Assembly: GCA_017654855.1 (NCBI GenBank)
Contig: CM030336.1
Span: 186,001 to 250,000 of the forward strand
Reading direction: 5' to 3'
Source of the DNA: Podospora anserina
Lineage: Eukaryota
Length of the DNA: 64,000 nucleotides
Of this stretch, positions 2,323 to 21,709 are shown in pieces (the first letter of the stretch is position 1; each line of letters begins with the position of its first letter). A program made the position numbers and the translations under genes. Below the pieces are notes generated by a model, which saw nothing but the letters and a program-made list of their open reading frames with translations, made no database searches and was not told where the DNA came from.

Positions 2323-5300
2323 ATGGGGACAGAGAACGACCTTGACGTCGAGGGCCAGACGGAACCTCCTATACGTGGCCTAAAGAGTTCCAAAAACACT
2401 TCCGCTTCGGCGTCATCCCCCACCCTCGCCGGCACCGTCCGTACTGCCGGCACCGTCTCCGCTGACAGCACCCCGACTCTCCCGGGCTTCACCCCCGAGT
2501 CGGCTCATACCCTCACCGTCCCCGATGTCTCCTCTCTCCTCGAGACCGACAGCCAGTATGTGTAGTTCCTGTTGTCTTGTGCTTCCCCCTTTTTTCTCCT
2601 CTCTCAAGGCCACTAACCCATCCCCCCCAGAAATGGACTCGACAATACCGAGGCTGCCCGTCGCCTGCAGCAGTATGGCCCTAACAAGGTTGAGGGTGCT
2701 AAGGGGCTATCCCTGTGGACGATTCTCCTAAGACAGGTGTCCAATAGTTTGACACTTGTCCTCGTCATCACCATGATCCTCTCCTTTGCCATCGACGACC
2801 ACATCGAGGGCGGCGTCATTGCCGCCGTCATTCTGCTGAACATCGTCGTTGGCTTTGTCCAGGATTACCGTGCCGAGCAGACCATTCAGGCTCTGTATGC
2901 CTTGTCTGCGCCCACGTGCAAGGTTGTCCGGTCCGGCCAGACCGAGTCTATCAAGGCCGAGTTTCTGGTCCCCGGCGACCTTGTCCGCCTCGGCGTTGGA
3001 GATGTCGTCCCGGCAGATCTGCGCCTCGTAAGCAGCATCAACTTGTCCACCGATGAGGCACTGTTGACGGGCGAATCTCTCCCCGTCAGCAAGCATGCCG
3101 AGCTCATCCTCAAGGACCGTGATGTTCCTCTTGGTGACCGCACCAACATGGTGTACTCGGCCAGCACTGTCACCCGCGGCCGCGCCATGGGTCTAGTTAC
3201 TGCTACGGCCATGAACACAGAGGTCGGCAAGATTGCCGAGCTCCTTCGGACCACCAGGGGCAAGACTGTCGATGAGGACAGCAGCATGGTCAAGAAGATC
3301 TGGACGAAATTCCGGAACGGCTTGCGTATTATCCTCGGCCTCGACGGCACCCCTCTCCAGGTCACGCTGAGCAAGTTTGCTCTTCTCCTTTTCGGTCTGG
3401 CCATCATGCTGGCCATCATTGTCTTCTCTGTCAGCAAGTTCAACATCGACGATGAGGTCCTCATCTACGGAATCTGCGTGGCTGTTGCCGTCATTCCCGA
3501 ATCTCTCATTGCTGTGCTCACCATTGCCACGGCCCTCGGCACTCGTGCCATGGCCAAGGGCAATGTAGTGATTCGCAAGCTCGCCGCCCTCGAGGCCGTG
3601 GGCGGAGTGACCAACGTGTGCTCGGACAAAACTGGCACACTGACGCAGGGCAAGATGGTGGCCAAGAGCGTCTGGCTGGCTGACGGCACCGAGATCACCA
3701 TTCAAAACACCAACCACCCCTTTGACCCCACGAGCGGAGACGTTCGCGTGGGTGACGTTGACTGGGTCCTCTCCGAGAAGGAGAGGAAGACGCCCGCTCA
3801 GCTTACCTCATTCCTCGAGACAGTCGCCCTGTGCAACAACTCGGCCGTCACCAAGGCTGACGCCGCTGGCCCCTACACGGCCATCGGTGAGCCCACCGAG
3901 ATCGCGCTGCAGGTTCTTGCCATGAGATTCGACTCTGGCAAGCCTCAGCTCACGGCGGGGGGCAGCCACGGATTGTTGGCCGAGTACCCCTTCGACTCGT
4001 CGTGCAAGAGAATGACGGTCGTCTGCCGCGCCGACGGCTCAGACGACGCAGACAGTGCCTCTGCATACGCTTACACCAAGGGTGCCATCGAGGCCATCCT
4101 GCCTCTGATGAACGCCTCGGACGCGCTCAAGGCCGAGATTGTCACCAGAGCCGAGGCTTTGGCAGCACTAGGTCTCCGTGTTCTCTGCGTCGCTCGGAAA
4201 CCCGTCGACGCCTCGCTTTTCTCTGTCGAGCTCAAAGAGGGCTCGGAACAGAGCAACAACGGCCTCCCCGAGAGAAACACGGTCGAGTGCGACCTCGTCT
4301 TCTTGGGCCTGGCTGGTCTCTATGATCCTCCTCGTGTCGAGTCGGCTGCCGCGGTGGCCAAGTGCAAGGAAGCAGGCATCATGGTCCACATGCTTACTGG
4401 CGACCACGTCAAGACCGCCACCGCCATCGCCTACGAGATCGGCATCTTGTCTCGGGACCCTTCTGCGGCGGCTTCATCTCCCAACAGCATCATGGTTGCC
4501 AGCGCATTTGACGCCCTGACCGAAGCCGAAATCGATGCCATGCCTTCTTTGCCCCTGGTCCTTGCCAGATGCAGTCCTACCACCAAGGTCAGGATGGTGG
4601 AAGCCATGCATCGTCGCAAGGCCTTTTGTGTCATGACCGGTGATGGTGTCAACGACTCCCCCGCCCTCAAGATCAGTGATGTTGGCATTGCCATGGGTCT
4701 GAACGGCAGTGACGTGGCCAAGGAAGCGGCCGACATGGTTCTCACCGACGATAACTTTGCCAGTATCGTCACTGCCGTGGAGGAAGGCCGTCGTCTTTTT
4801 GACAATATTCAAAAGGTATTTCTCTCTGCTCATTCTCATCAATGGAAACATGCTGACGGTAGTAACCACAGTTCCTCCTCCATCTACTCATTTCCAACAT
4901 CGCCCAGGTCATCCTACTTCTCATCGGTCTCGCCTTCAAAGACAACAAGGGCGTCTCCGTCTTCCCCTTGTCGCCGCTGGAAATCCTCTGGGCCAACCTC
5001 GTCACGTCTTCCTTCTTGGCCCTCGGCCTCGGCCTGGAAGATGCCCAGCCGGATGTCATGCAGCGCCCGCCCCACGACCTGGCCGTCGGCATCTTCACCA
5101 AGGAGCTCATCATCGACAAGTTCGTCTACGGCACCGCCATGGGCGGGCTCTGTCTCGCAGCCTTCACCTCGGTGGCCTACGGCGTCTCTGGCCCCGACGG
5201 TCTGGGCGAGCTGTGCAACTCGGACTACTCGCCCGCTTGCGACCTTGCCTTTAGAGCCAGAGCCACCACCTTTGCCACCTTGACGTTCCTGCTGCTGGTC

Positions 5301-6284: not shown

Positions 6285-7772
6285 CTAACCCCTCCGTCCA
6301 TACACGACCCAGAAATTCCAATAAGCGTGCAACCTCCTATCCCTCAAATCTTTTCTGACCGAGGCCATAAAGATCCTCACCTCATCCGCCGACCATCTAA
6401 GCACCCTGGTAAACAGAGCCAAGCTCATGCTCTCACACCCCCAGCTGAAATTCTCGTGGGCCCACTTCCCCAGCTCCTTGTGCTTTGGATCTCTAGGCCA
6501 TGTGTTGATCGGCCATTTGACCTGCCTGGCCACGATGTCCACGTACCCTGCCTCGGCCATCATGTCCGGCACTCTGTTGATGGCGTCCAGGGGAAACCCA
6601 GCTTTGTTGGCGGCATCGTGCATCAGCTCGTGCCACTTCGCCAGGGGTGAGTCGGGAGGGAGGGTGCCGTCGTCACAGCGGATGAAGAAGTCGATGTCGT
6701 GAACCTCGGTGTAGCTGTTGGGGCCGGCAAGGAACTCGCGAGACTGGCGGAAGAATTTGGGCCAGTCCTGGAAGGCGCCGATCATGAGCTGGCAGTGGAT
6801 GTAGTCGAAGCGCTGGGTGAAGTTCCACGGTTGCTCGAGGTCGTCGACTTCAAAGATGAGGTTTGGGGGGACGCACTGAGGCTGCACCGGAGCAAGGTCA
6901 ACGCCGAGCACCTCTGCTTCGGGATGCTCATCAGCTAAACATGGTGTCAGTACACTCAGTACACTGGTGTGCTCCGTAACGCAACATGAAGAAACGCACC
7001 GAACTCTATCGCCCAGATGCCTGTGCCACATCCCACATCCAGGGCCCGTTGAATGTTTTGAATAGGGGCAGTGCTGTGCTGCTTGTCCAGGGTGAGCCAG
7101 ACCAAGTGACATTGGAAGTCTGTCGCAGCTGGGTTAGCCAACAGTGCCTGGTTTGCGGCCTGATGATGTTCATACCCAATCGTTCTAGCTCTTGCTAGAT
7201 GTGTGAGATCACAGTCAGCTATGGTGTTTGCTTGTTTGAGACATGTTGGTTGGTGACGGCGAAATCCTACCTCGTCCATTGGAAGGACATATTCTGAATT
7301 TGGTTAGCTGAACGATCAAGACGGTTCGGATGCACGTCACACTCACTCGCTTCCAGGTAACCCTGGTATTGCCTGCCATGTTCCTTAACCTGCAGGATCA
7401 ATTCGTCGCGAAGAGAAGTGGTGGATGAGTGAAGACTGGCAATGGCGGAATCTCCGTCATCAAAAACGGAGTCAACCTCATCTGAGTCCTGTGCAGTTGG
7501 TTGCGTCAGCATCCCGTAACCCCCCCCCCCCGAGCGCCTGATGGGATTACATCTGGTTGGAGCTCCTCTGCCTCGGCAATGGTGACAACGGCGGCGGCGG
7601 CGGCGGTGCTCACGGGCGCATCGTCCCGAGCCGGTGGGAAGGTGGTTGCCGTTGGGCTCGAAGCCGATGATGGCTCTTTTGCGGGACTGGTCGGGGCGGC
7701 GTCGGCAGGTGTGGCGGGGTTTGTGTCGGGGGCCGTTGCTGTTAGCTTGTTGTTCTCCGCATCGTTGGCCAT
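6285..7772 (-). CDS. LaeA-like class I SAM-dependent methyltransferase, 5 introns including two micro-exons
   Basis: Spliced product has HGRQYQGYL..KYVLPMDEQELERLDFQ, LDVGCGTGIW (SAM motif I), GVDLAPVQP, FEVDDLE, WPINTWP, VVYGRR. Ala/Pro-rich N-terminus from ATG 7772. Confidence 0.9.
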
Positions 7773-10642: not shown

Positions 10643-11901
10643 TTATAGCTCAGGGGTGTCCTGATAGAGCTGCTCATCGGCTGCAAGTCCATCAAAAAAG
10701 CCCGGAGAAATACGGTCCCCGCTGACGTCGGCGTTGTCGATGGTGGCCCTGATCTTCTTGACGTCCTCGTCCGAGAGCGTCACATTACAGGACGCCACGT
10801 TTTCTTCCAGATACTTGACCTTTTTGGTCCCCGGGATAGGGATGATGTCGGACCCCTGCGCCATGAGCCACGCCAGTGCCAGTTGGCCAGTAGTACAGCC
10901 TATCTCCGCGGTCAGCCGTCCTTCTCTATAGGGCGAATCAAATGAGAACGGGGAACCTACCCTTCCTCTTTGCAATCTCGCCCAGTTTCTCGACGACCTC
11001 AAGGTTCTTGGGAAAGTTCTCGGGGCTGAACCTCGGAACCAGCCGGCGGAAATCATCCGCGGCGAAATCATCGACAGACTTGATCTGGCCCGTGAGGAAA
11101 CCCCTGCCCAGCGGCGAGTAAGCAAAGACCGTCACACCCAGCTCACGACACGTGTCCAGCAGATGAGTCCCGGTCTCGTTCTCAATATCAAGCTGCCAGG
11201 GGTTGTATTCCACCTGAACAGCGTCGATCTGAACAATCTTGGAAGCCCGGCGGAGGGTGTTGGACGAGCATTCTGATATCCCGATTGCCCTGATCTTTCC
11301 TTGTCTATTTCCCTTTATCAGTACTTGCTTCGGAGATGTCGGGCGTGGGTGGAAAGCGGATGGCTTACTCCTTCAACTCCTTCAACGCCTGCGCTGTCTT
11401 CTCGATGGGCGTCTTCCCATCCGTGCGGTGAATGTAATACAAGTCAAGGTACTCCACGCCGAGCCTCTTCAGGCTCTTCTCGATGGACTGTCGGGCGTAC
11501 TCGGGGGTGGAATCAATCACAAACTTGAACTCCCCTTTCTCATTGGTCCGGCCGCCGAGGGCGAACTTGGAGGCGAGGAAAATGTCCTCGCGGCGCTCGG
11601 GGTGGAGGGAAAACCACTTGCCGAGGAGTTCTTCGCAGTCTCCGTACACGTCGGCCGTGTCCCAGTTTGTACAGCCGATGGACCAAGCATGGTCGAGGAA
11701 GGCAAGGCGAGATGATTCGTCTCTTCAGTGATGAGGTTGTCAAGTCAGAGTCAAGGAGGTGATAAGGGGGTGCGTAAGGTATTTAGGATCTCACCCTGGG
11801 TTGCCATAGGCGATGCTCAGGCCCATCAAGCCGAGTCCGATGGCTGGAATCTCAGGGCCGTTGCGGCCCAGTTTGCGAGTAGGAATGGTAACTGAAGACA
11901 T
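10643..11901 (-). CDS. Aldo-keto reductase (YakC/AKR13-like), multi-exon
   Basis: MSSVTIPTRKLGRNGPEIPAIGLGLMG, catalytic DTADVY, LASKF, LYYIHR, AYSPLGRG, IPIPGTKK. Confidence 0.93.
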
Positions 11902-12324
11902 GGTGTTTCAGGAAGTGCTTGTATGCCTAAGATTGGTGATTGAGGGTTTTGAAGACTGTGGTGCAGAAAAAGGTAGGTGTTGATTGCAGATCTTCTGGTC
12001 CTTATATACCTCCAACACCCATCCACAGCCACCGAAGTCGAGGTTATGAGCTAGACCAAATCCATACTGGGCTTCCAATGAAGTCCTTCCCGTTATAGGT
12101 TCATTGCATCATACATGGGCTCGACCCGGAGTTTAGAACAATTTTGCTTACAAAATAGTGCATCCTCATAGCCCCATATATTGGATTATTTTGGCCACTG
12201 TCGCCGGAGTTTGGCGGCCGCGAATTTTGTGGGCGGGATTTAACGCCGATGCTGCGGGCCACGAAAGGTGGTAGCTGTACCCGGGTTAATGCCGTCTTCT
12301 TCATGATTCTATGCCAAAGTACTA

Positions 12325-13196
12325 TCACAAATCATCACCCTTTATTCCCTCAGGTAAAGGTTCTTGTCTCGTCCAAATATTCATTCCCACCTTTCCTCCC
12401 GAAAGCACAGGCAGCCCAGCATGGAGAGTCCTCTCATCACCCCGCCCATCCGGCAGCAGATTCTCCCAGTAAATGGCATTGCCCTCAACAGGCCGGAACG
12501 TCACCCCGTTCTCCCACTCCTCATCGCAGTCTACGATCCCCTCCTGGCACCACTTGTCGTTCGCAGGGGCGTCTAACCTTGGGAAGTTGGTCCCGCCACC
12601 CATGGTATCGTTGGCGACATGAACATAGGCGAAGAAAGAGCTGACCCTGTTTCCTCCGAGACCTTGGGTATGGGAAGAGGATGTGAACCAGTCGGTGTGA
12701 AAGTGGTAGCGTTCTGATGGGCCGTATTTGACCAGCTGGAGGGGTTCCAGGTGTGTCTCGGGTGTGTCGTAGCCCTGGAAGGCGAGGGCTCGGGATTCAA
12801 TGCATCTCACTACCGCATCGCGGGGTGCAGTGGTGCTTTGTGATGTCCGGACGGAGAGATGGCTTTTGGAGTTGCCCCTCGTCACACCGGAACGGGTGAA
12901 GGTTTTTTCACTGTGGTGTGGTGAGCCTATGCTGTTTTTTTCTTCAAATAGGCCACATGTAAACACGCTTACGTCAGATTCAACAGGTGAGCACGTTCTG
13001 GCGGAGTGATCAAGTCTTTTATGTAGATGACCAATGGCGACTTTGAAACCATGAGCACTTTGTATGGCGGGTGTTCGCAGACATAGTTGTTGAGATCAAT
13101 GGGCCTGTGGCTGTCATCTTCAGTGTTTGATGTACTCGCGGCGATGAGAGTAGATGCGCTGAGCGCTGTAAGTAGGAGCGACTTGAGCAGAGCCAT
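12325..13196 (-). CDS. Prolyl 4-hydroxylase alpha-like 2OG-Fe(II) dioxygenase with signal peptide and C-terminal GDDL; intron 12911-12972; about 269 aa
   Basis: Signal peptide MALLKSLLLTALSASTLIAA. P4H motifs VSKSPLVIYIKDLI, RTSQS, EPLQLVKY, HFHTD (HxD), GGGTNFP, GNAIYWENL, TLHAGLPV (distal His), GGKVGMNIW (2OG-binding Lys). Confidence 0.88.
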
Positions 13197-13571
13197 GATG
13201 GGACTAGGTGTCTGGTTGGTGTTCAATCCAGCCTTGAAAATAGATATTTTCAGATGAAAATGGGAATGACGTCTCTTAAAAGGGTCTACCCCTAAAAAAC
13301 AGCTGTGCCGGAGATGGGCCCATGACAAGCAGACGTTTTGACATGATGAAACACACGGGTGTTGCGTTTGCAGCAGAATGATGCTGCGCAAAGCTTTCTT
13401 CTGTCACAGGCGGTCGATCTGTGCCCCATATCATGCACCCCTGTGGAGAGCACTCCTTGTCGGCCCTCCAACTCAAATGAAGCTTTGATCCCGTATCCCA
13501 ATTTCCTTTGTTTTTAAACACAGGCCCGGTTATCTCAAAAATGAGAAAAAAGAATTAGTCCATGATCCATC

Positions 13572-14808
13572 ATGAGAGAGTCAATTTGGACGTTGTACAC
13601 TCTTGCGGTGTTGTTGCAGCGCGTCTTGGCATGGGAGCATCTCGAAGGCAAGGAACTAGAGACAACACTCGGAGCTCGCGACCGGACACTTGTTGCATGT
13701 AAGTTGCTCAACGATGCTTTTTCATCGCCATGCGTTCTGACATATGTCTAGTTGTCCTCCCAGATGAGTAAGGAAAAGCAGAAATCAACGAAATCAACCC
13801 ATCTGCTGGTATTGATACCTGCCATTTTTCTAGGGAACACACTCAAGCCTTGGAACCTGAATGGGCCGCCCTCCAGAAACAAAACCAAGAAGATGTCTAT
13901 GTTAGTATAGACTGCTCGCAAGACGCAAAGCTGTGCCAAAAGTACAATGTCCGATCATGTCCGACGATCCGACTCTACAAACAAGATGGCTCTTACACTT
14001 CCTATCGTGGTCCGCGAAAAACTCAGCCTATCAAGTCATTTGTACAGAGACAGAGTCGCCCCGTCGTCTCTTATGTGAACGACCAGTCCATGCCATCATT
14101 TCAGACATCTGACGATATCACATTCATTGGGCACTTTGGGCCTAGTGAGAAACAAATCAAGGAGGATTTCACGAAGCTGGCAAAACAGTATCATGATCGA
14201 TTTTCCTTTGCCATTGCCGACTACACTCTCCCGAAGGTACTTGTTGAGTGTTTCAACAATGTCGACGAAACAAGTCTGTCGGCCACCAGCAACGACGTGG
14301 CCAGCCCTGGGGCGCTCCAAGACTTCATCTTCAGTTGCTCGACACCACTGATCCCTGAAATGACCCGAAGAAACGAAATGGACTTCTTTCAGGTGAGTTA
14401 CTGGCTGTTGCCATAGGTAATCCGAATGAGTTCGATTAGCTGACTCATCACTGCTTACGTGTCAAACAGTCAGGGAAAAGTATCGTTTACTTCTTCGCCC
14501 ATTCTCAGCAGAAAAAGGACGCATTTGTCTCCGATATTCGACCATTGGCCAAGAAATACGACGAGTATCTTCACTTTGTTACCATTGACGCAAAAGAGTA
14601 CGCCGACGCAGCCAAATTGATGGGCCTGAAAGAGGGTGGGACAGGTTTGTCGGTGCAGAATCCCAACAACGGAGACGTCTTTCCTTATGCTAGAAAGGAG
14701 GCCATTTCGGCGGCTGTAGTGGAGGCATTTCTGGTGGACATTATCCAAGGGAAGGTGAAGCCTTGGAGAGGAGAGGAGCTACACCAGCAGGGGCATGATG
14801 AGCTTTAG
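13572..14808 (+). CDS. ER PDI-like thioredoxin-fold protein (a-b-b' type, no CxxC, HDEL); exons 13572-13698, 13752-13767, 13834-14392, 14470-14808; about 346 aa
   Basis: Signal peptide MRESIWTLYTLAVLLQRVLA. PDI a-domain pattern TLVAFVLPDEEHTQALEPEW..SIDCSQDAKLCQKYNVRSCPTIRLY..YRGPR, then b/b' patterns (LAKQYHDRFSFA; LHFVTIDA) and terminal HDEL. All three introns keep the frame. Confidence 0.85.
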
Positions 14809-14969
14809 AACTGAGGCATCAAGCAGACTGACTGTAAGTCATCGGATGCATAGTTGGAGTACTGTAATATCTCAAAAGAAGAAAGATGGGACATAATACA
14901 AAAAAGAATCGTGGACGTTAAAGAAGGCAAGAATGTGGAGCCGAAAAGGAGCCAAAATGGAAATTAGAG

Positions 14970-15067
14970 TGCCCAATAACAGGATTGAACTGTTGACCTT
15001 CGCATGACTTGATATTAACCTTGCGGCAATATTAGTACGACGCTCTAACCAGCTGAGCTAATCGGGC
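14970..15067 (-). tRNA. tRNA-Ile(AAT) with 24-nt intron
   Basis: GCCCGAT/ATTGGGC acceptor stem, D arm GCTC..GAGC, anticodon stem TCGTA/TGCGA, CT-AAT-A, T loop TTCAATC. Confidence 0.95.
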
Positions 15068-16135
15068 CATTGTTTTTTGGTGCCCATATTCGAAATACAC
15101 ATTCTAGTTTGAGGCCGCTCTATGCAGTGTGATAGTTGGTATGTGTCTACTTTGCCTCCGCTGGGGCAGAATTGTAGGGAGTATATGGCGGAGTATATCT
15201 TGAAGTTCTACTACGGGACTATTTGCTGGGAAAGGTGCCCAGGAATGAAAGAATAGTGGTTGCCTCTTGATAAGATTCTTGAAAATCTTGATCGAAGCTT
15301 GTCTCTGATGCTGTTGTGAAGGGGTTCAGGGGCAATGACAATGCCAAGACAATCCGAAAACAGGACTTGTGTTGACATTTTCCATGCTCAAAGTATCGAA
15401 TTCTGTGTCGTGAGATAAGGAGTTGGGCAAAGAACGGCATGTTTAAGCCTTTTGAAGAGTGCCTCTTGTTTGAGATAATGACAGAGTCAAGGAGCACCTG
15501 AGGTCTCGGTTTCCACCAGGGCCAAACTCGAGTTCAGCATTTACCTTGGACTCCGGAACAAAATATAGAAGCTCGAAAAGCATAGATGGAGTCTCTTGCA
15601 GGGAGCTGCAAGTTGTCAAAAATCTCATATATGAAGGTCTTTCACCTTCCCCGTTCACCTCTCTCATTTTTTTTTCCCACGTCGTCAAAGCGCCTCATCA
15701 AACCGCATTCATGAACGAGCATTCAAAAGCAAAGTGCTGACCTGCTACAACCTCCACACCTCAGTCAGCATAGATGGAAGGTCAACAGAACGCCATCACG
15801 GCCATTTGGAGCCTAGTCGGCTCCCCAGTACACATATGGGGCCACGTACGGAGGCCTTTAAATACCTACCTTACCCTTATCACAAGCAGTATGGTCTGTG
15901 CTTAGGTTGTGACAGCGGAACGGAAACCCTGCGTTGTGCCCCGCAATGCATTGGCTTTTTTTGGTGGTGGCCCACTTGGGCTCTGGACTCCCAAGGGACC
16001 CCAGTGGTTGTTACCCCGCCAAATGTGATGATCTGAAAGGAGAAAAGCCCCTTGTTGACCGCTCCACGTAATTTCAGCTTCTCTTTTCTCTCCCTCTTCT
16101 CCTGCCAGCCTTGCCTCAATAATAGCCAAGCCAAC

Positions 16136-17396
16136 ATGTCTGACAAAGTCTACCGCGCGAGCACCACGGCGCCCGTCAACATTGCCGTCGTCAAGTCGGT
16201 CCTCACCATACCAGTCCCTCCCCCTTTGTCTAACAGCAGCAACACTAACACTCCAGCCCAACACCAGGTACTGGGGCAAGCGTGATGCCAAACTCAACCT
16301 CCCCACAAACAGCTCTCTGAGCGTCACCCTCTCTCAAGCCGACCTCCGTACCCTGACGACGGCCTCATGCTCTGCCTCGTTTCCTGCCAGCGAAGGCGAC
16401 GCCCTCCTTCTCAACGGCGAGCCATCCGATATTTCGGGTGCCCGAACCCAAGCATGCCTCCGTGAACTGCGCTCTCGCCGCGCCGCCCTCGAAGCTGCCG
16501 ATCCCTCCCTCCCTAAGCTTTCCACCTACCCCCTCCGCCTCGTCTCCGAGAACAACTTCCCCACCGCCGCCGGTCTGGCCTCCTCGGCCGCTGGCTTCGC
16601 TGCCCTTGTCCGCGCCATCGCCAACCTCTACGAGCTCCCAGCCTCCCCCTCCGAGTTGAGCTTGATCGCCCGCCAAGGCTCTGGCTCTGCTTGCCGCAGT
16701 CTCTTTGGTGGTTATGTTGCCTGGAGAATGGGCGACAAGGCTGATGGCACAGACTCGATGGCCGATCAAGTTGCCGAGGCCTCGCACTGGCCCGACATGC
16801 GCGCCTTGGTTTTGGTTGTCTCTGCTGCCAAGAAGGGCGTCAGCTCTAGCTCTGGTATGCAGCAGACAGTTGCTACCTCTGGCCTCTTCCGCGAGCGCAT
16901 CGCCACCGTTGTGCCCGAGAACATGGCCATCATGGAGAAGGCGATCGCCGAAAAGGACTTTGAGAAGTTCGCCGAGGTCACCATGAGGGATAGCAACTCG
17001 TTCCATGCTACCTGCGCTGACACCTATCCGCCCATCTTCTACATGAACGATGTTTCAAGAGCCGCCATCCGGGCTGTGGAGGCCATCAACGAGAAGGCTG
17101 GCAGGACTGTGGCGGCGTACACCTTCGACGCCGGCCCGAACGCTGTCATCTACTACCAGGAGAAGGACACGGAAGCTGTTGTGGGCACATTCTACCATGT
17201 TCTCCAGGGTGCGGATATCGGCGGGTGGAAGAGTGCGGACATCAAGGGTCTCAAGCCCACCATCTCGCTTGATGAGAATGTTGCTGGCCTGTTGAAGGCC
17301 GGTGTTAGCCGGGTTATCATGACGGGTGTCGGCGAGGGGCCGGTCAAGACAGACGAGTTTCTTGTTGCTGAGGACGGAACTCCGGCGAAAAGGTGA
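16136..17396 (+). CDS. MVD1: Diphosphomevalonate decarboxylase; intron 16195-16267
   Basis: APVNIAVVKYWGKRD after splicing, NNFPTAAGLASSAAG (GHMP motif), ARQGSGSACRS, DSNSFHA, AYTFDAGPN. Confidence 0.97.
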
Positions 17397-17950: not shown

Positions 17951-19442
17951 ATGAGCTCCGGTAAAACATGCTACGACATCGACCCAGCAGGCGACGTGCT
18001 CTGCACTTATACAGGCGACGGCCAAAAAGAGCCCTTCTTAGCCGTCGGTTTCCCCCTCCTACGTTCAGTCCCCTTTGCGCCCTTCCCGCCCGATTTCGAC
18101 TAATTTCCCCCCTTGTTGGTATTATCAGACTAAAACCGTCGTCCCAACCGCCAAAGCCCTCCTCTACGCCTTCTTACCAGCCGGATATCCCCACACCGTC
18201 ACAACCGACTATCTACCTTACCAGACTTACGACTCCCTCCAGGCGTTTGCCTCGTCCATCACGTCGTTGCTGGCCTCCCGCGCCGTGTTGGAAGGGTTGG
18301 GGGTAGGGAGCAGCGAAGCCTCCCCAACGGGCGCGCTCATTCTCAAGATCACGGGCGATACCATTTCGAGGATAGCGACGATATTGTTTGCCCACCGCAT
18401 GGGCCAGGCGATAGAGCCGGAATGTAAATTCTACCGGTTCCTGGCCGACATCTTTAACGATGCGGCTCAGTTTTTGGATCTGTTGACTCCGGCCCTGCCG
18501 TACCTGCCGAAGCTGGGGGTGATTGTCTCGGCGGGGGTGCTGAGGAGTCTCTGTGGTGTGGCGGCGAATGCGAGCAAGGCTAGTCTTTCGGCGCACTTTG
18601 CTGTCACGGGGAACCTGGCCGAGCTCAACGCCAAGGAGGCGTCCCAGGAAACTGTGGTGTCGCTGTTGGGCATGCTAGTGGGGAGTCTGGTGGTGAGGTT
18701 GGTGGAGGATAAGCACAAGGTCTGGGGGCTGATGATCATCCTTGCGGGTTGCCATTTGGCCATGAATTACCGGGCTGTCAGGGCGGTGAGGATGACGAGC
18801 CTGAACAGGCAGAGGGCGACGATTGTGTTTAGGGAGTGGTTGGAGAGCGGGACCGTGTTGAACCCGGCGCAGGTGTCGCAGAGGGAGAGCATTTTGATGA
18901 ACGGGAGGGGGGAGCTGAGCAGCAAGACGGGGGACTACACCGGGTTTTGTGACTTTGCGACATACGGAGAACTTAAGGGGTGGAACCCGAGGGGGTATCA
19001 CAGGTATGATCTGGAGACCAAGACGTATTTTATGGGAATATGGCATCGCGGCGGGTACTTCTACATGAAAATTGCCCTAAAGGAAACTGTCAAGAGTCCG
19101 CTGGCGGCTTGGTTCGATGCCGTCAACCACGCTTATCACTTTGGATCCGCCTTCAAGGATGGACTGGAGAGCCATTACGAGAGCGAGAAGCCTTTGGGAT
19201 ACGTGGATGAGGAGCAGAAGGAGTCAATATTTGCAGCTCTCGGGGCCGCTGGGTGGGATTTGGAAGCAAACGCGCTGGAGACGAGGTTACCAGTAAGGGT
19301 ACGAGTTGGGGATAAGAAAGGTCAGTTTACATCTTGGACTCGGGACCGCTCATGATTTGTTGACTGACATACCCCTCCAGGCACACCGGAAAAGGAGGGG
19401 CTTTTGCGGCACCCCGGGCATCAAGAGTCAAAACATGATTGA
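17951..19442 (+). CDS. DUF647 / RUS1 (root UVB sensitive) family protein; probable introns 18044-18127 and 19321-19380
   Basis: FLPAGYPHTVTTDYLPYQTYDSLQ, ECKFYRFLADIFND, GNLAELNAKEASQET, NYRAVRAV, LNRQR are typical DUF647 motifs. The terminal exons are inferred from splice signals. Confidence 0.88.
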
Positions 19443-19703: not shown

Positions 19704-20645
19704 TTAAGCCAGCCCAGTAGCCCTTAGCGCCCTCATCTTGACACCCTCCCAGGTGTTGAGCTTCGGCCTGACATCCAGGTAAAAGTTCAGCTTCCCTCCA
19801 CCTGACGTATCCCGCCCCGAGTAAAAGTCAATCACGTATTCCACCTTTGTTCCGCACCTGTCCACGATCCAATCGTGCCTGTCAAACGGCGCTGTATACC
19901 CCAGCAGAGTGTTGATCCTCGCCTTGGGCGTCATTTTCCCCTTTTCTCCCGCAAACGAGTACAACCTTGGACCGCCGCAGGACTTCGAGTCGTAGTGGGC
20001 CTCCCACTTCAGAATCTCAGCCCAGGCGCGCTCGTTGACGGCGTTGTGGATGGGCACAACAGTTTTCATGTCCTTCGCCTGGGCCGAGGTGAAGCCTTTC
20101 CTCCTCATGGCCTCGAAAAACTGCTTTTCCGATGGGTAGATCCAATGGCCCGACTCAGACGTGCCGGTTTCCTGCTCGCTATTCTGGGGACAGGCGGATG
20201 GACCTGTGTCTCTGGACCGGGGGATAGAGGAAACTTCACGGACCTCGTCGAGGACAGAGGCGCGGGGCTTTGGCGGGGTTGTGGAGGCGGATTCTGTCGA
20301 GGTGGGGGAAGAGAAGGAGGGGAGGCGCAGCCATGATGTCCACGAGGAAGACTGCTGTGGTTGTTGCGGTTGTGTGGAGCGTTCTGGTACTGGTGGTCTT
20401 GACTTGTTGCTGGCATTCTGTGCTGCTTCCTCCTTTGCCCTCGCCTGCTGCATCCACAGCTCGCGGGTTTTATGGTCGACTGGGCACTTCTCCTCGGCGC
20501 CAGCGTTTGCGCCGCGAGCTCCGGCTTCTCTCATCCTGGCGGTGTTTGGTGTGTTTGATGATGGTGTCCCTCCACTCGGGTCGTCCTGTCCTGCCTTTAC
20601 CACGTCTTTACCAACTAAAACTGTATCGACAAACTCGTGGTGCAT
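19704..20645 (-). CDS. CYT2: Holocytochrome c1 synthase (cytochrome c1 heme lyase); start codon uncertain
   Basis: CPV heme-regulatory motif, WIYPSEKQFFEAM, VPIHNAVNERAW, APFDRHDW, YVIDFY, LDVRP. Confidence 0.92.
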   Translation of the reverse strand: MHHEFVDTVLVGKDVVKAGQDDPSGGTPSSNTPNTARMREAGARGANAGAEEKCPVDHKTRELWMQQARAKEEAAQNASNKSRPPVPERSTQPQQPQQSSSWTSWLRLPSFSSPTSTESASTTPPKPRASVLDEVREVSSIPRSRDTGPSACPQNSEQETGTSESGHWIYPSEKQFFEAMRRKGFTSAQAKDMKTVVPIHNAVNERAWAEILKWEAHYDSKSCGGPRLYSFAGEKGKMTPKARINTLLGYTAPFDRHDWIVDRCGTKVEYVIDFYSGRDTSGGGKLNFYLDVRPKLNTWEGVKMRALRATGLA

Positions 20646-21709
20646 TCTGTGCGCATAATTCCGGGAATCGTTTCTTTGAGGGTCAGGTGGAGACTCGGGG
20701 AGTATCGCGAGGCTTCGTGTGCGACGGTCTTATTTATGTATGGTCGCAAAGGGTTGAAGTCAGCACGACGGAGCTGCGACGTCAGGAGGGGTCAAGCATG
20801 GAGCTTGGACTTGAGGTTGAACAGTGAGTCGCAAAAGAGATCACAAGATGCATCATGGAACTTTGACCCGCCCGCCCCTGTTGGGTGGATATTTTTAATT
20901 CAGCAGCTGTCGCGACCCGTGGTGCCGGATCGGCCTCTGGTTGGCCAGCTGGCAGGTCCCAGTTTCTAACACCGACCTCAGACGATGCTACAGTGAAACA
21001 AACATTCTGCTTTTATTGAAGCATTTTCTGGTTTTCCATGTGTATTGGAGTTTTCATGTTACATATCGCGATATCCTACTTTGACATCGGCTCGGCCGGA
21101 GCCCCATTCCCTGCTTCAAGTTTCAAGAACGGTGGAGTGGGAGTTTGAAATGTTTTTCATTTCTTTTTGCCTATCAAATGCTGAACATGATCTGTCAGGG
21201 TGAAGCCTGAGCCAGCTGTTTTGCCTGTTGAGGTCCCATATCATCGAACCAAAAACACCTTTGGATACTACTCCAGCGGGGATTCTGATCGATCCATCTT
21301 GCCACTTCCCATCCCCAATCTCCAGTCCACCACATACATCGAGGCACTTTCGTGCCCTGCACCAAAAAAGTGCAATGCGCCTATAAACAAAAGAAAGGCC
21401 GCCGCCGCCCTCTCTTCCACGAAAGAGCGTTATGCGGGCGTGCCATGCTGATCCCAGTGTTTCGATGTCCTGTAAACCCACCGCCCATGCCTATGCTTTT
21501 CCGCGGCGTCCATGGTTTTTTATTCGCCTCTCTGGCGTATGTCATACCTTATCCGGGTATCATGACATCTAGTTGAAAAAAGTGAAAAAAGGTTCCCTTC
21601 GAAACTCGTGGGGAAGTGGTGTGTGATGGTGCGGGAAGAGGTAAAGTTGAAGCACATCCACTCTAGGGGAGTGTGCCTACATGTGATTAAGAGTCGGCAG
21701 AGATGATGC

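Follow-up and report, generated by a model that had tools for sequence, protein, structure and literature searches.

Animal collagen and plant cell-wall glycoproteins both depend centrally on prolyl 4-hydroxylation in the secretory pathway, a reaction that to our knowledge is almost unstudied in fungi. In the animal collagen prolyl 4-hydroxylase (P4H), an alpha2beta2 assembly of P4HA1-3 with P4HB, that is, protein disulfide isomerase (PDI), the alpha subunit depends on the KDEL signal of PDI, whose role in the enzyme is independent of its redox activity. The P4Hs of plants, algae and viruses (Cr-P4H-1, 2jig/3gze; Arabidopsis P4H1; PBCV-1, 5c5t) are of single-domain size and are not known to need a PDI subunit. 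Elsewhere in the endoplasmic reticulum (ER), the a-b-b' protein ERp44 retrieves KDEL-less enzymes by means of its RDEL tail, capturing its clients through the cysteine of a CRFS motif, and canonical PDI is a fixed subunit of ER enzymes in Chaetomium EDEM:PDI (9TPA) and yeast Mnl1:Pdi1 (8ZPW), where a full a-b-b'-a' PDI is held by an intermolecular disulfide to its CxxC motif. The analysis reported here concerns two genes at positions 12325-14808 of a 64,000-nucleotide stretch of Podospora anserina DNA (assembly GCA_017654855.1, contig CM030336.1, positions 186,001 to 250,000 of the forward strand; the whole stretch is called the window below), one encoding a P4H-like protein of 269 amino acids (aa) and the other a PDI-like protein (pseudo-PDI) of 346 aa. 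In the preferred reading, to which a probability of roughly 0.55 is given, the pseudo-PDI serves as a dedicated, beta-like partner by which a P4H with no retention signal of its own is held in the ER. Full-text literature searches found no description of such a fungal P4H/PDI-like pair, in agreement with an initial annotation made from the sequence of the window, which knew of none.

The two genes lie head to head. As read from the sequence and its six-frame translation, the P4H gene occupies the minus strand, with its start codon at 13196 and its stop at 12325-12327, and the PDI-like gene the plus strand, from a start codon at 13572 to a stop at 14806-14808, directly after the codons for a terminal HDEL. 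Between the start codons lie 375 bp of divergent intergenic sequence (13197..13571), a putative bidirectional promoter. These coordinates are those of the initial annotation, and its domain assignments are confirmed by Pfam. The P4H gene consists of exon 1 (12973..13196, minus strand; it holds the start codon and encodes a hydrophobic N-terminus and the conserved motif C-x-H-P-x-Y), an intron of 62 nt with GT..AG ends (12911..12972, minus strand), whose residue junction agrees with that of the orthologue model P0002, and exon 2 (12325..12910, minus strand; coding to 12328 and including the stop at 12325-12327), which holds the 2-oxoglutarate (2OG)/Fe(II) catalytic core with the HxD...H iron ligands and the 2OG-binding Lys. 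Three introns, the last at 14393-14469, divide the PDI-like gene into four exons on the plus strand: exon 1 (13572..13698) with the start codon, a hydrophobic N-terminus and the beginning of the a domain; a micro-exon of 16 nt (13752..13767) that gives EEHT at the site of the CGHC of PDI and is joined in the same way in the relatives' models P0122 and P0125; exon 3 (13834..14392), which completes the a domain and adds b (Thioredoxin, E 3.9e-12; Thioredoxin_6, E 5.6e-14); and exon 4 (14470..14808) with the b' domain (Thioredoxin_6, E 1.1e-04), the HDEL tail and the stop. The large exon of the PDI-like gene is 99% identical to a protein of Podospora pseudopauciseta, and the P4H is 93% identical to its Triangularia verruculosa orthologue P0002. 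Signal peptides on both products were judged by eye from the hydrophobic N-termini.

These models are supported by contigs from four public runs, each of a different study (X1, X2, X3 and X6), that were aligned to positions 12000-15000; the runs are assumed to be RNA because their contigs show GT..AG joints at predicted introns. Both genes are covered by transcript-like contigs in 4/4 runs. Position 13698, where exon 1 ends, is joined to 13834 with exactly the 16 letters of the micro-exon between them in X1, X2 and X6, and the loose ends of X3 contigs agree; the intron at 14393-14469 is spliced out in all four runs, and the spliced joint of the P4H gene, 12910|12973, is present in X2 only (1/4 runs). 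A first P4H model with an intron of 41 nt was dropped in favor of the 62-nt intron, which is that of the orthologues and is spliced in X2. Likewise dropped was a PDI-like model that omits the micro-exon, as does the public Podospora pseudopauciseta protein P0121; both the contigs and other orthologues have the micro-exon. In P0121 (359 aa) a later acceptor is used instead (corresponding to 13699-13833 of the window, plus strand), so that 19 unrelated residues are inserted, and the omission is probably an annotation error.

The hydroxylase is a catalytic domain and little else. Its large exon matches the Pfam family 2OG-FeII_Oxy_3 (PF13640; E 3.5e-08, above the cutoff), which is the sole Pfam domain of the protein (residues 132-256 of P0002), and four residues, H146, D148, H238 and K248, are invariant in 24/24 orthologues and align with the same residues of the Chlamydomonas enzyme 2jig; C40, H42, P43 and Y45, which make up the C-x-H-P-x-Y segment, are invariant in the orthologues as well. 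In searches with the P4H profile 2jig is also the best solved relative (E 5.4e-25), and the catalytic (CAT) domain of human P4HA2 (7zsc_A) is matched with E 2.7e-22. Judged by these matches, the 269-aa protein is a single-domain P4H-type 2OG/Fe(II) dioxygenase of the plant/algal size class, and it would presumably hydroxylate prolyl rather than other residues. The plant, algal and viral P4Hs are its closest relatives by sequence and have in common with it the single-domain size and the HxD...H...K pattern; what sets the fungal family apart from them is a linked PDI-like gene together with additional conserved cysteines. The C-termini of the orthologues are variable (GPDV, RGKD, GADL, LRGV and others), and 0/70 full-length orthologues fit the ER-tail pattern [KRHQSA][DENQ]EL. 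The GDDL end of the Podospora protein had been taken in the initial annotation for a KDEL-type tail, an assignment that is not borne out by this count.

The partner, by contrast with the hydroxylase, carries such a signal in most members. In a set of 95 family members with a length of 295 aa or more, 84 have tails that fit the strict [KRHQSA][DENQ]EL pattern and 10 more end in HTEL, HSEL or HDEM. In the same set CxxC occurs nowhere in 93/95 proteins and, in the other two, away from the active-site position; alignments show that most members have no cysteine at that position at all, and the protein of the window has EEHT where PDI has CGHC. The Pfam domains of its exons (Thioredoxin and Thioredoxin_6) and its HDEL end uphold the PDI-fold gene that the initial annotation had described. 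The family profile aligns to the a-b-b' part of the PDI of Chaetomium thermophilum (9tpa_B, residues 9-329 of 507) with 270.6 bits, compared with 146.5 bits for yeast Pdi1, 139.7 for human PDI and 85.3 for ERp44; according to the available part of its preprint, 9TPA is the Chaetomium thermophilum EDEM:PDI complex (bioRxiv 10.1101/2025.01.29.635535). Since the family is far closer to the a-b-b' part of Chaetomium PDI, it is a fungal PDI paralogue that ends after b', with no a' domain and with both redox motifs lost. The EDEM:PDI and Mnl1:Pdi1 complexes resemble the arrangement proposed here in that a PDI-fold protein is the partner of an ER enzyme, but the full-length PDI and the CxxC-borne disulfide on which they are built have no counterpart in a partner that has neither a' nor CxxC. 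ERp44 has the a-b-b' plus xDEL architecture in common with the fungal protein and does the job that is proposed for it, retrieval of KDEL-less ER enzymes; unlike ERp44, however, the fungal protein has no cysteine at the client-capturing site. An ERp44-like cluster is the third nearest to the PDI-like protein by language-model features (0.94), a similarity that serves as a lead only.

The pairing of the two genes is conserved far above chance expectation. It was followed by two routes, through species names and contigs in the protein searches and through a metagenome scan with the P4H profile. Of the 27 species present in both protein lists, 26 have both genes on a contig of the same size, and 13 of these 26 shared contigs are under 350 kb (the Podospora australis contig is 20 kb); the pair bears successive locus tags in Truncatella angustata (002055/002054), Xylaria arbuscula (g2309/g2310) and Cercophora sp. 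LCS_1 (8323/8324), and successive JGI (Joint Genome Institute) ids in Echria macrotheca. The metagenome scan returned 80 loci, at 59 of which a PDI-like match (tblastn with 109 PDI-like proteins) is found, always upstream and on the opposite strand; 19 of the 21 loci with no PDI-like match have at most 568 nt of upstream sequence. When loci were grouped at 95% nucleotide identity, 58 lineages resulted, 42 of them with the partner according to a family hidden Markov model; of the 16 others, 14 have at most 518 nt upstream and are thus untestable, so the head-to-head pair is kept in 42 of 44 testable lineages. The orthologues therefore stay adjacent and divergent, as the initial annotation had proposed to check. 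The paired P4Hs span identities down to ~47%, and the spacing is ~260-570 nt where both N-termini were matched. Several loci match PDI-like proteins of Helotiales at 63-74% identity, and others weakly match Paecilomyces-like ones; given the Helotiales matches, the pair is probably older than Sordariomycetes, and it probably extends beyond that class. The two testable negatives, L077 and L078, offer 945 and 1290 nt of upstream sequence, respectively, in which no PDI-like gene is found; their P4Hs, at 38% and 43% identity, are among the most distant and probably belong to an unpaired paralogous family.

Structure prediction supports binding between the two proteins. The pair modeled was that of Triangularia verruculosa (P0002, residues 21-269, with P0125, residues 19-345), and the complex scored 0.76 (0.76, 0.75 and 0.76 in separate runs) against 0.10 for the best of three controls. 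The score mark is reached by 51/78 solved complexes and 2/108 mismatched pairs, or by 39/65 and 2/126 among eukaryotes; at least 70% of contacts are common to the runs, and the pLDDT (predicted local distance difference test) of the partner is 86. On the PDI-like side the predicted interface comprises the former active-site face (43, 46), the surroundings of the cis-Pro loop (84-92), the YRGPR motif (102-106) and the TRRNE motif at the b-b' junction (225-230); on the P4H side it comprises the GGGTNFP loop (178-186), a Cys-Asp-Glu insertion (202-210) and the strands beside the second iron ligand. R226 and R227 of TRRNE are predicted to contact P4H residues 145, 237 and 239, beside the iron-ligand strands. 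Within the PDI-like protein, conservation is higher at the predicted interface residues, among them the family motifs YRGPR and TRRNE, than elsewhere (0.70 vs 0.52; Mann-Whitney p 7e-04).

The predicted arrangement can be compared with the solved human CAT-PDI complex, 7ZSC, in which Cys311, in the N-terminal extension of CAT, forms a disulfide to the a' CGHC, Ile324 of the same extension sits in the b' pocket and Cys529 forms a disulfide to the a-domain CGHC (PMC9676403). Because a' and CGHC are absent from the fungal partner, the intersubunit disulfides of 7ZSC are impossible there. The a-domain CGHC loop of 7ZSC also contacts CAT (PMC9676403), and the fungal contact is likewise predicted on the a-domain face, at the former CGHC site and the cis-Pro loop. 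With no a' domain, no cysteines and no N-terminal extension in the fungal pair, at most this a-domain contact is comparable, and the prediction is thus no simple copy of 7ZSC. Modeling against the human P4HA-PDI interface had been suggested in the initial annotation: a complex is indeed predicted well above the controls, while its interface is for the most part unlike the human one.

Taken as a system, the fungal pair resembles the animal collagen P4H in that the ER signal is found on the PDI-family partner and not on the hydroxylase; the analogy with the animal alpha subunit is therefore made closer, not weaker, by the finding that the fungal P4H has no KDEL-type tail. The differences are equally clear. 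The animal alpha subunit has dimerization and peptide-substrate-binding domains and an extended N-terminus of CAT, none of which is present in the fungal P4H, and the animal beta subunit is the catalytic PDI itself, whereas the fungal partner is a dedicated paralogue that lacks a' and CGHC and is encoded by the adjacent gene. The module is thus, so far as its sequences tell, like the animal collagen P4H in its division of labor and not a member of that family. Of the alpha/beta-like ER hydroxylase put forward in the initial annotation, the synteny, the tail asymmetry and the complex score speak for the general scheme; the KDEL-type tail on the P4H does not stand, and a strict co-distribution of the two genes is not fully borne out.

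In the mechanism that is proposed, one divergent promoter would drive both genes, and the P4H would enter the ER by means of its signal peptide (recognized by inspection). There the pseudo-PDI would bind it, chiefly by way of the b-b' junction and the face of the a domain that once held the active site. The pseudo-PDI would act as a non-catalytic, beta-like subunit or escort whose HDEL-dependent retrieval retains the P4H in the early secretory pathway, and it may in addition maintain the solubility of the enzyme; the P4H so retained would hydroxylate prolines of secretory proteins that pass through. A wider version of this scheme, in which an ancient two-gene ER module of filamentous ascomycetes arose with a duplicated PDI, devoid of redox chemistry and of a', as the dedicated HDEL-bearing beta subunit of a minimal P4H, is put forward tentatively, as somewhat less than an even chance.

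Several observations weigh against a dedicated beta-like partner. With respect to the complex, a related complex has been solved (7ZSC), and therefore the passing prediction may partly reflect family likeness; nor can the prediction tell the PDI-like protein from canonical PDI as the partner. The conservation of the interface on the P4H side does not differ significantly from that of the rest (0.80 vs 0.73, p 0.079). With respect to the enzyme, the nearest solved relatives of the P4H are Chlamydomonas, bacterial and viral enzymes, known to act as monomers. With respect to expression, the P4H intron is retained in contigs of X1, X3 and X6 and in one X2 contig, in the same runs in which the PDI-like transcript is spliced; retention ends the frame after 75 codons and would yield a truncated protein, the contigs giving no proportions of the two forms, and it could be either regulated retention or an effect of assembly. 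With respect to linkage, the two genes of Diaporthe amygdali lie on contigs of differing size, which may represent two assemblies. With respect to distribution, P4Hs of Trichoderma, Stachybotrys, Tolypocladium, Colletotrichum and Pyricularia are among the best 120 P4H matches, and no PDI-like protein from these five genera is among the 110 PDI-like matches listed; the latter search was word-based and may miss relatives, although even members of other classes with 29-38% identity were recovered by it. In such fungi the enzyme may thus do without the partner. None of the metagenome loci is clearly from Hypocreales or Colletotrichum, and no Hypocreales PDI-like protein is among the 110 matches listed. 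Neurospora and Sordaria appear in neither list (best 120 P4H and 110 PDI-like matches), a pattern that at most hints at joint loss. The expectation in the initial annotation that the two genes are gained and lost together is thus not fully borne out, the five genera speaking against it suggestively. Finally, a P4H of similar size (FsP4H1 of Fusarium sacchari, 275 aa, with a signal peptide and HxD...H) is reported, in the available part of its description, to be a secreted effector that acts in the host nucleus (PMC13581073). That portion of the text mentions no PDI-like partner (PMC13581073), and FsP4H1, which is set beside the Podospora enzyme by description only, may belong to the same P4H family.

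A rival explanation has the two genes co-regulated side by side, with no complex between their products, the pseudo-PDI being a redox-inactive chaperone for other clients (for example Pro-rich or hydroxylated substrates of the P4H) and the P4H acting alone or with canonical PDI. Redox-inactive chaperones related to PDI do exist (ERp27, PDILT), the closest solved relatives of the P4H are single-chain enzymes, the peptide-binding b' domain of PDI is still present, and several genera have a P4H orthologue and no PDI-like protein among the matches listed. Set against this explanation, which is judged unlikely without being far-fetched, are the wide margin of the complex prediction (0.76 vs 0.10), the placement of conserved, family-specific motifs within the predicted interface, and the tail asymmetry (0/70 vs 84/95), which is what a retention partnership predicts. 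It is distinctly improbable that the pseudo-PDI is instead a regulator, an inhibitor or a substrate of the P4H and not a structural subunit: the predicted position of R226/R227 beside the iron-ligand strands and the two nearly invariant prolines just before the TRRNE motif would suit such a role, but the P4H residues that are contacted lie next to the ligands and probably point away from the sheet, and the conserved HDEL tail suits retention. That the adjacency is kept for non-functional reasons, as neutral microsynteny or entangled promoters, is very improbable, for even though overlapping regulatory regions can preserve divergent pairs in general and the surrounding genes are housekeeping genes that form no cluster, adjacency and orientation are kept in 42/44 testable lineages with P4H identity down to ~47%, the complex prediction passes, and the functional likeness to the animal P4H-PDI pair would be a remarkable coincidence.

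The transcript-like contigs of the two genes approach each other within the intergenic region without merging, those of the P4H gene reaching 13305-13425 and those of the PDI-like gene beginning at 13432-13489. Two short words recur in it more often than in shuffled sequences, ACCCCTG in 21/43 sequences (shuffle maximum 13) and GTGTTTCA in 13/43 (shuffle maximum 7), and the recurring words keep a fixed order in Sordariales-like loci, which comprise the window (13197-13571) and loci L002, L003, L014, L018, L020, L022, L023, L026 and L058. The order is two to three CCCCTG/CAGGGG words, an AAGCTT word and a TGAAACAC word, at ~125-250 nt from the P4H match.

The genes around the pair are housekeeping in character and give no sign of a secondary-metabolite or biosynthetic cluster; the flanking open reading frames encode a P-type ATPase (2617-5283), a methyltransferase (6285-7133), an aldo-keto reductase (10643-11131), mevalonate diphosphate decarboxylase (16059-17396), a RUS1/UVB-sensitivity-domain protein (18042-19355) and cytochrome c heme lyase (19704-20729). 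Neither collagen-like G-x-y repeats nor Pro-rich open reading frames turned up convincingly when the window was scanned for them. An intron-bearing tRNA gene of 98 nt lies on the minus strand at 14970-15067 (Rfam RF00005, 51.2 bits, E 2.6e-10), 160 bp downstream of the stop of the PDI-like gene, and its anticodon loop looks by eye like that of Ile (AAT); ARAGORN in default mode reports one tRNA in the window and misses this one.

The statement in the initial annotation that fungi have no collagen does not hold: the available part of one preprint describes 508 fungal collagen-domain proteins and also P4H domains, and cites endogenous P4H activity in a yeast (bioRxiv 10.1101/2021.10.08.463732). 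The roles of fungal P4Hs are called "largely uncharacterized" in the part of the Fusarium report available (PMC13581073), and Aspergillus niger, so far as the accessible text of another source goes, has been given human, plant or viral P4Hs for collagen hydroxylation (PMC12333218). A compact two-gene cassette of the kind described here might serve for producing hydroxylated collagen-like proteins in fungal hosts.

If the wider reading, of an ancient module with the pseudo-PDI as its beta subunit, is true, the partnership of P4H with PDI is not confined to animals, and would either go back to the opisthokont ancestor or have arisen on two occasions; fungi would also hydroxylate prolines of secretory proteins in the ER. 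For a P4H that has no retention signal and no partner secretion would be expected, and thus, more speculatively, lineages that lack the partner, such as Hypocreales if they really do, may release their P4H, which would fit the report of a Fusarium effector. The a-b-b' partner without cysteines would show, as a natural experiment, how much of PDI is enough for the role of a beta subunit, and a conserved P4H/pseudo-PDI module would offer a genetic handle on fungal hydroxyproline biology in the tractable Podospora.

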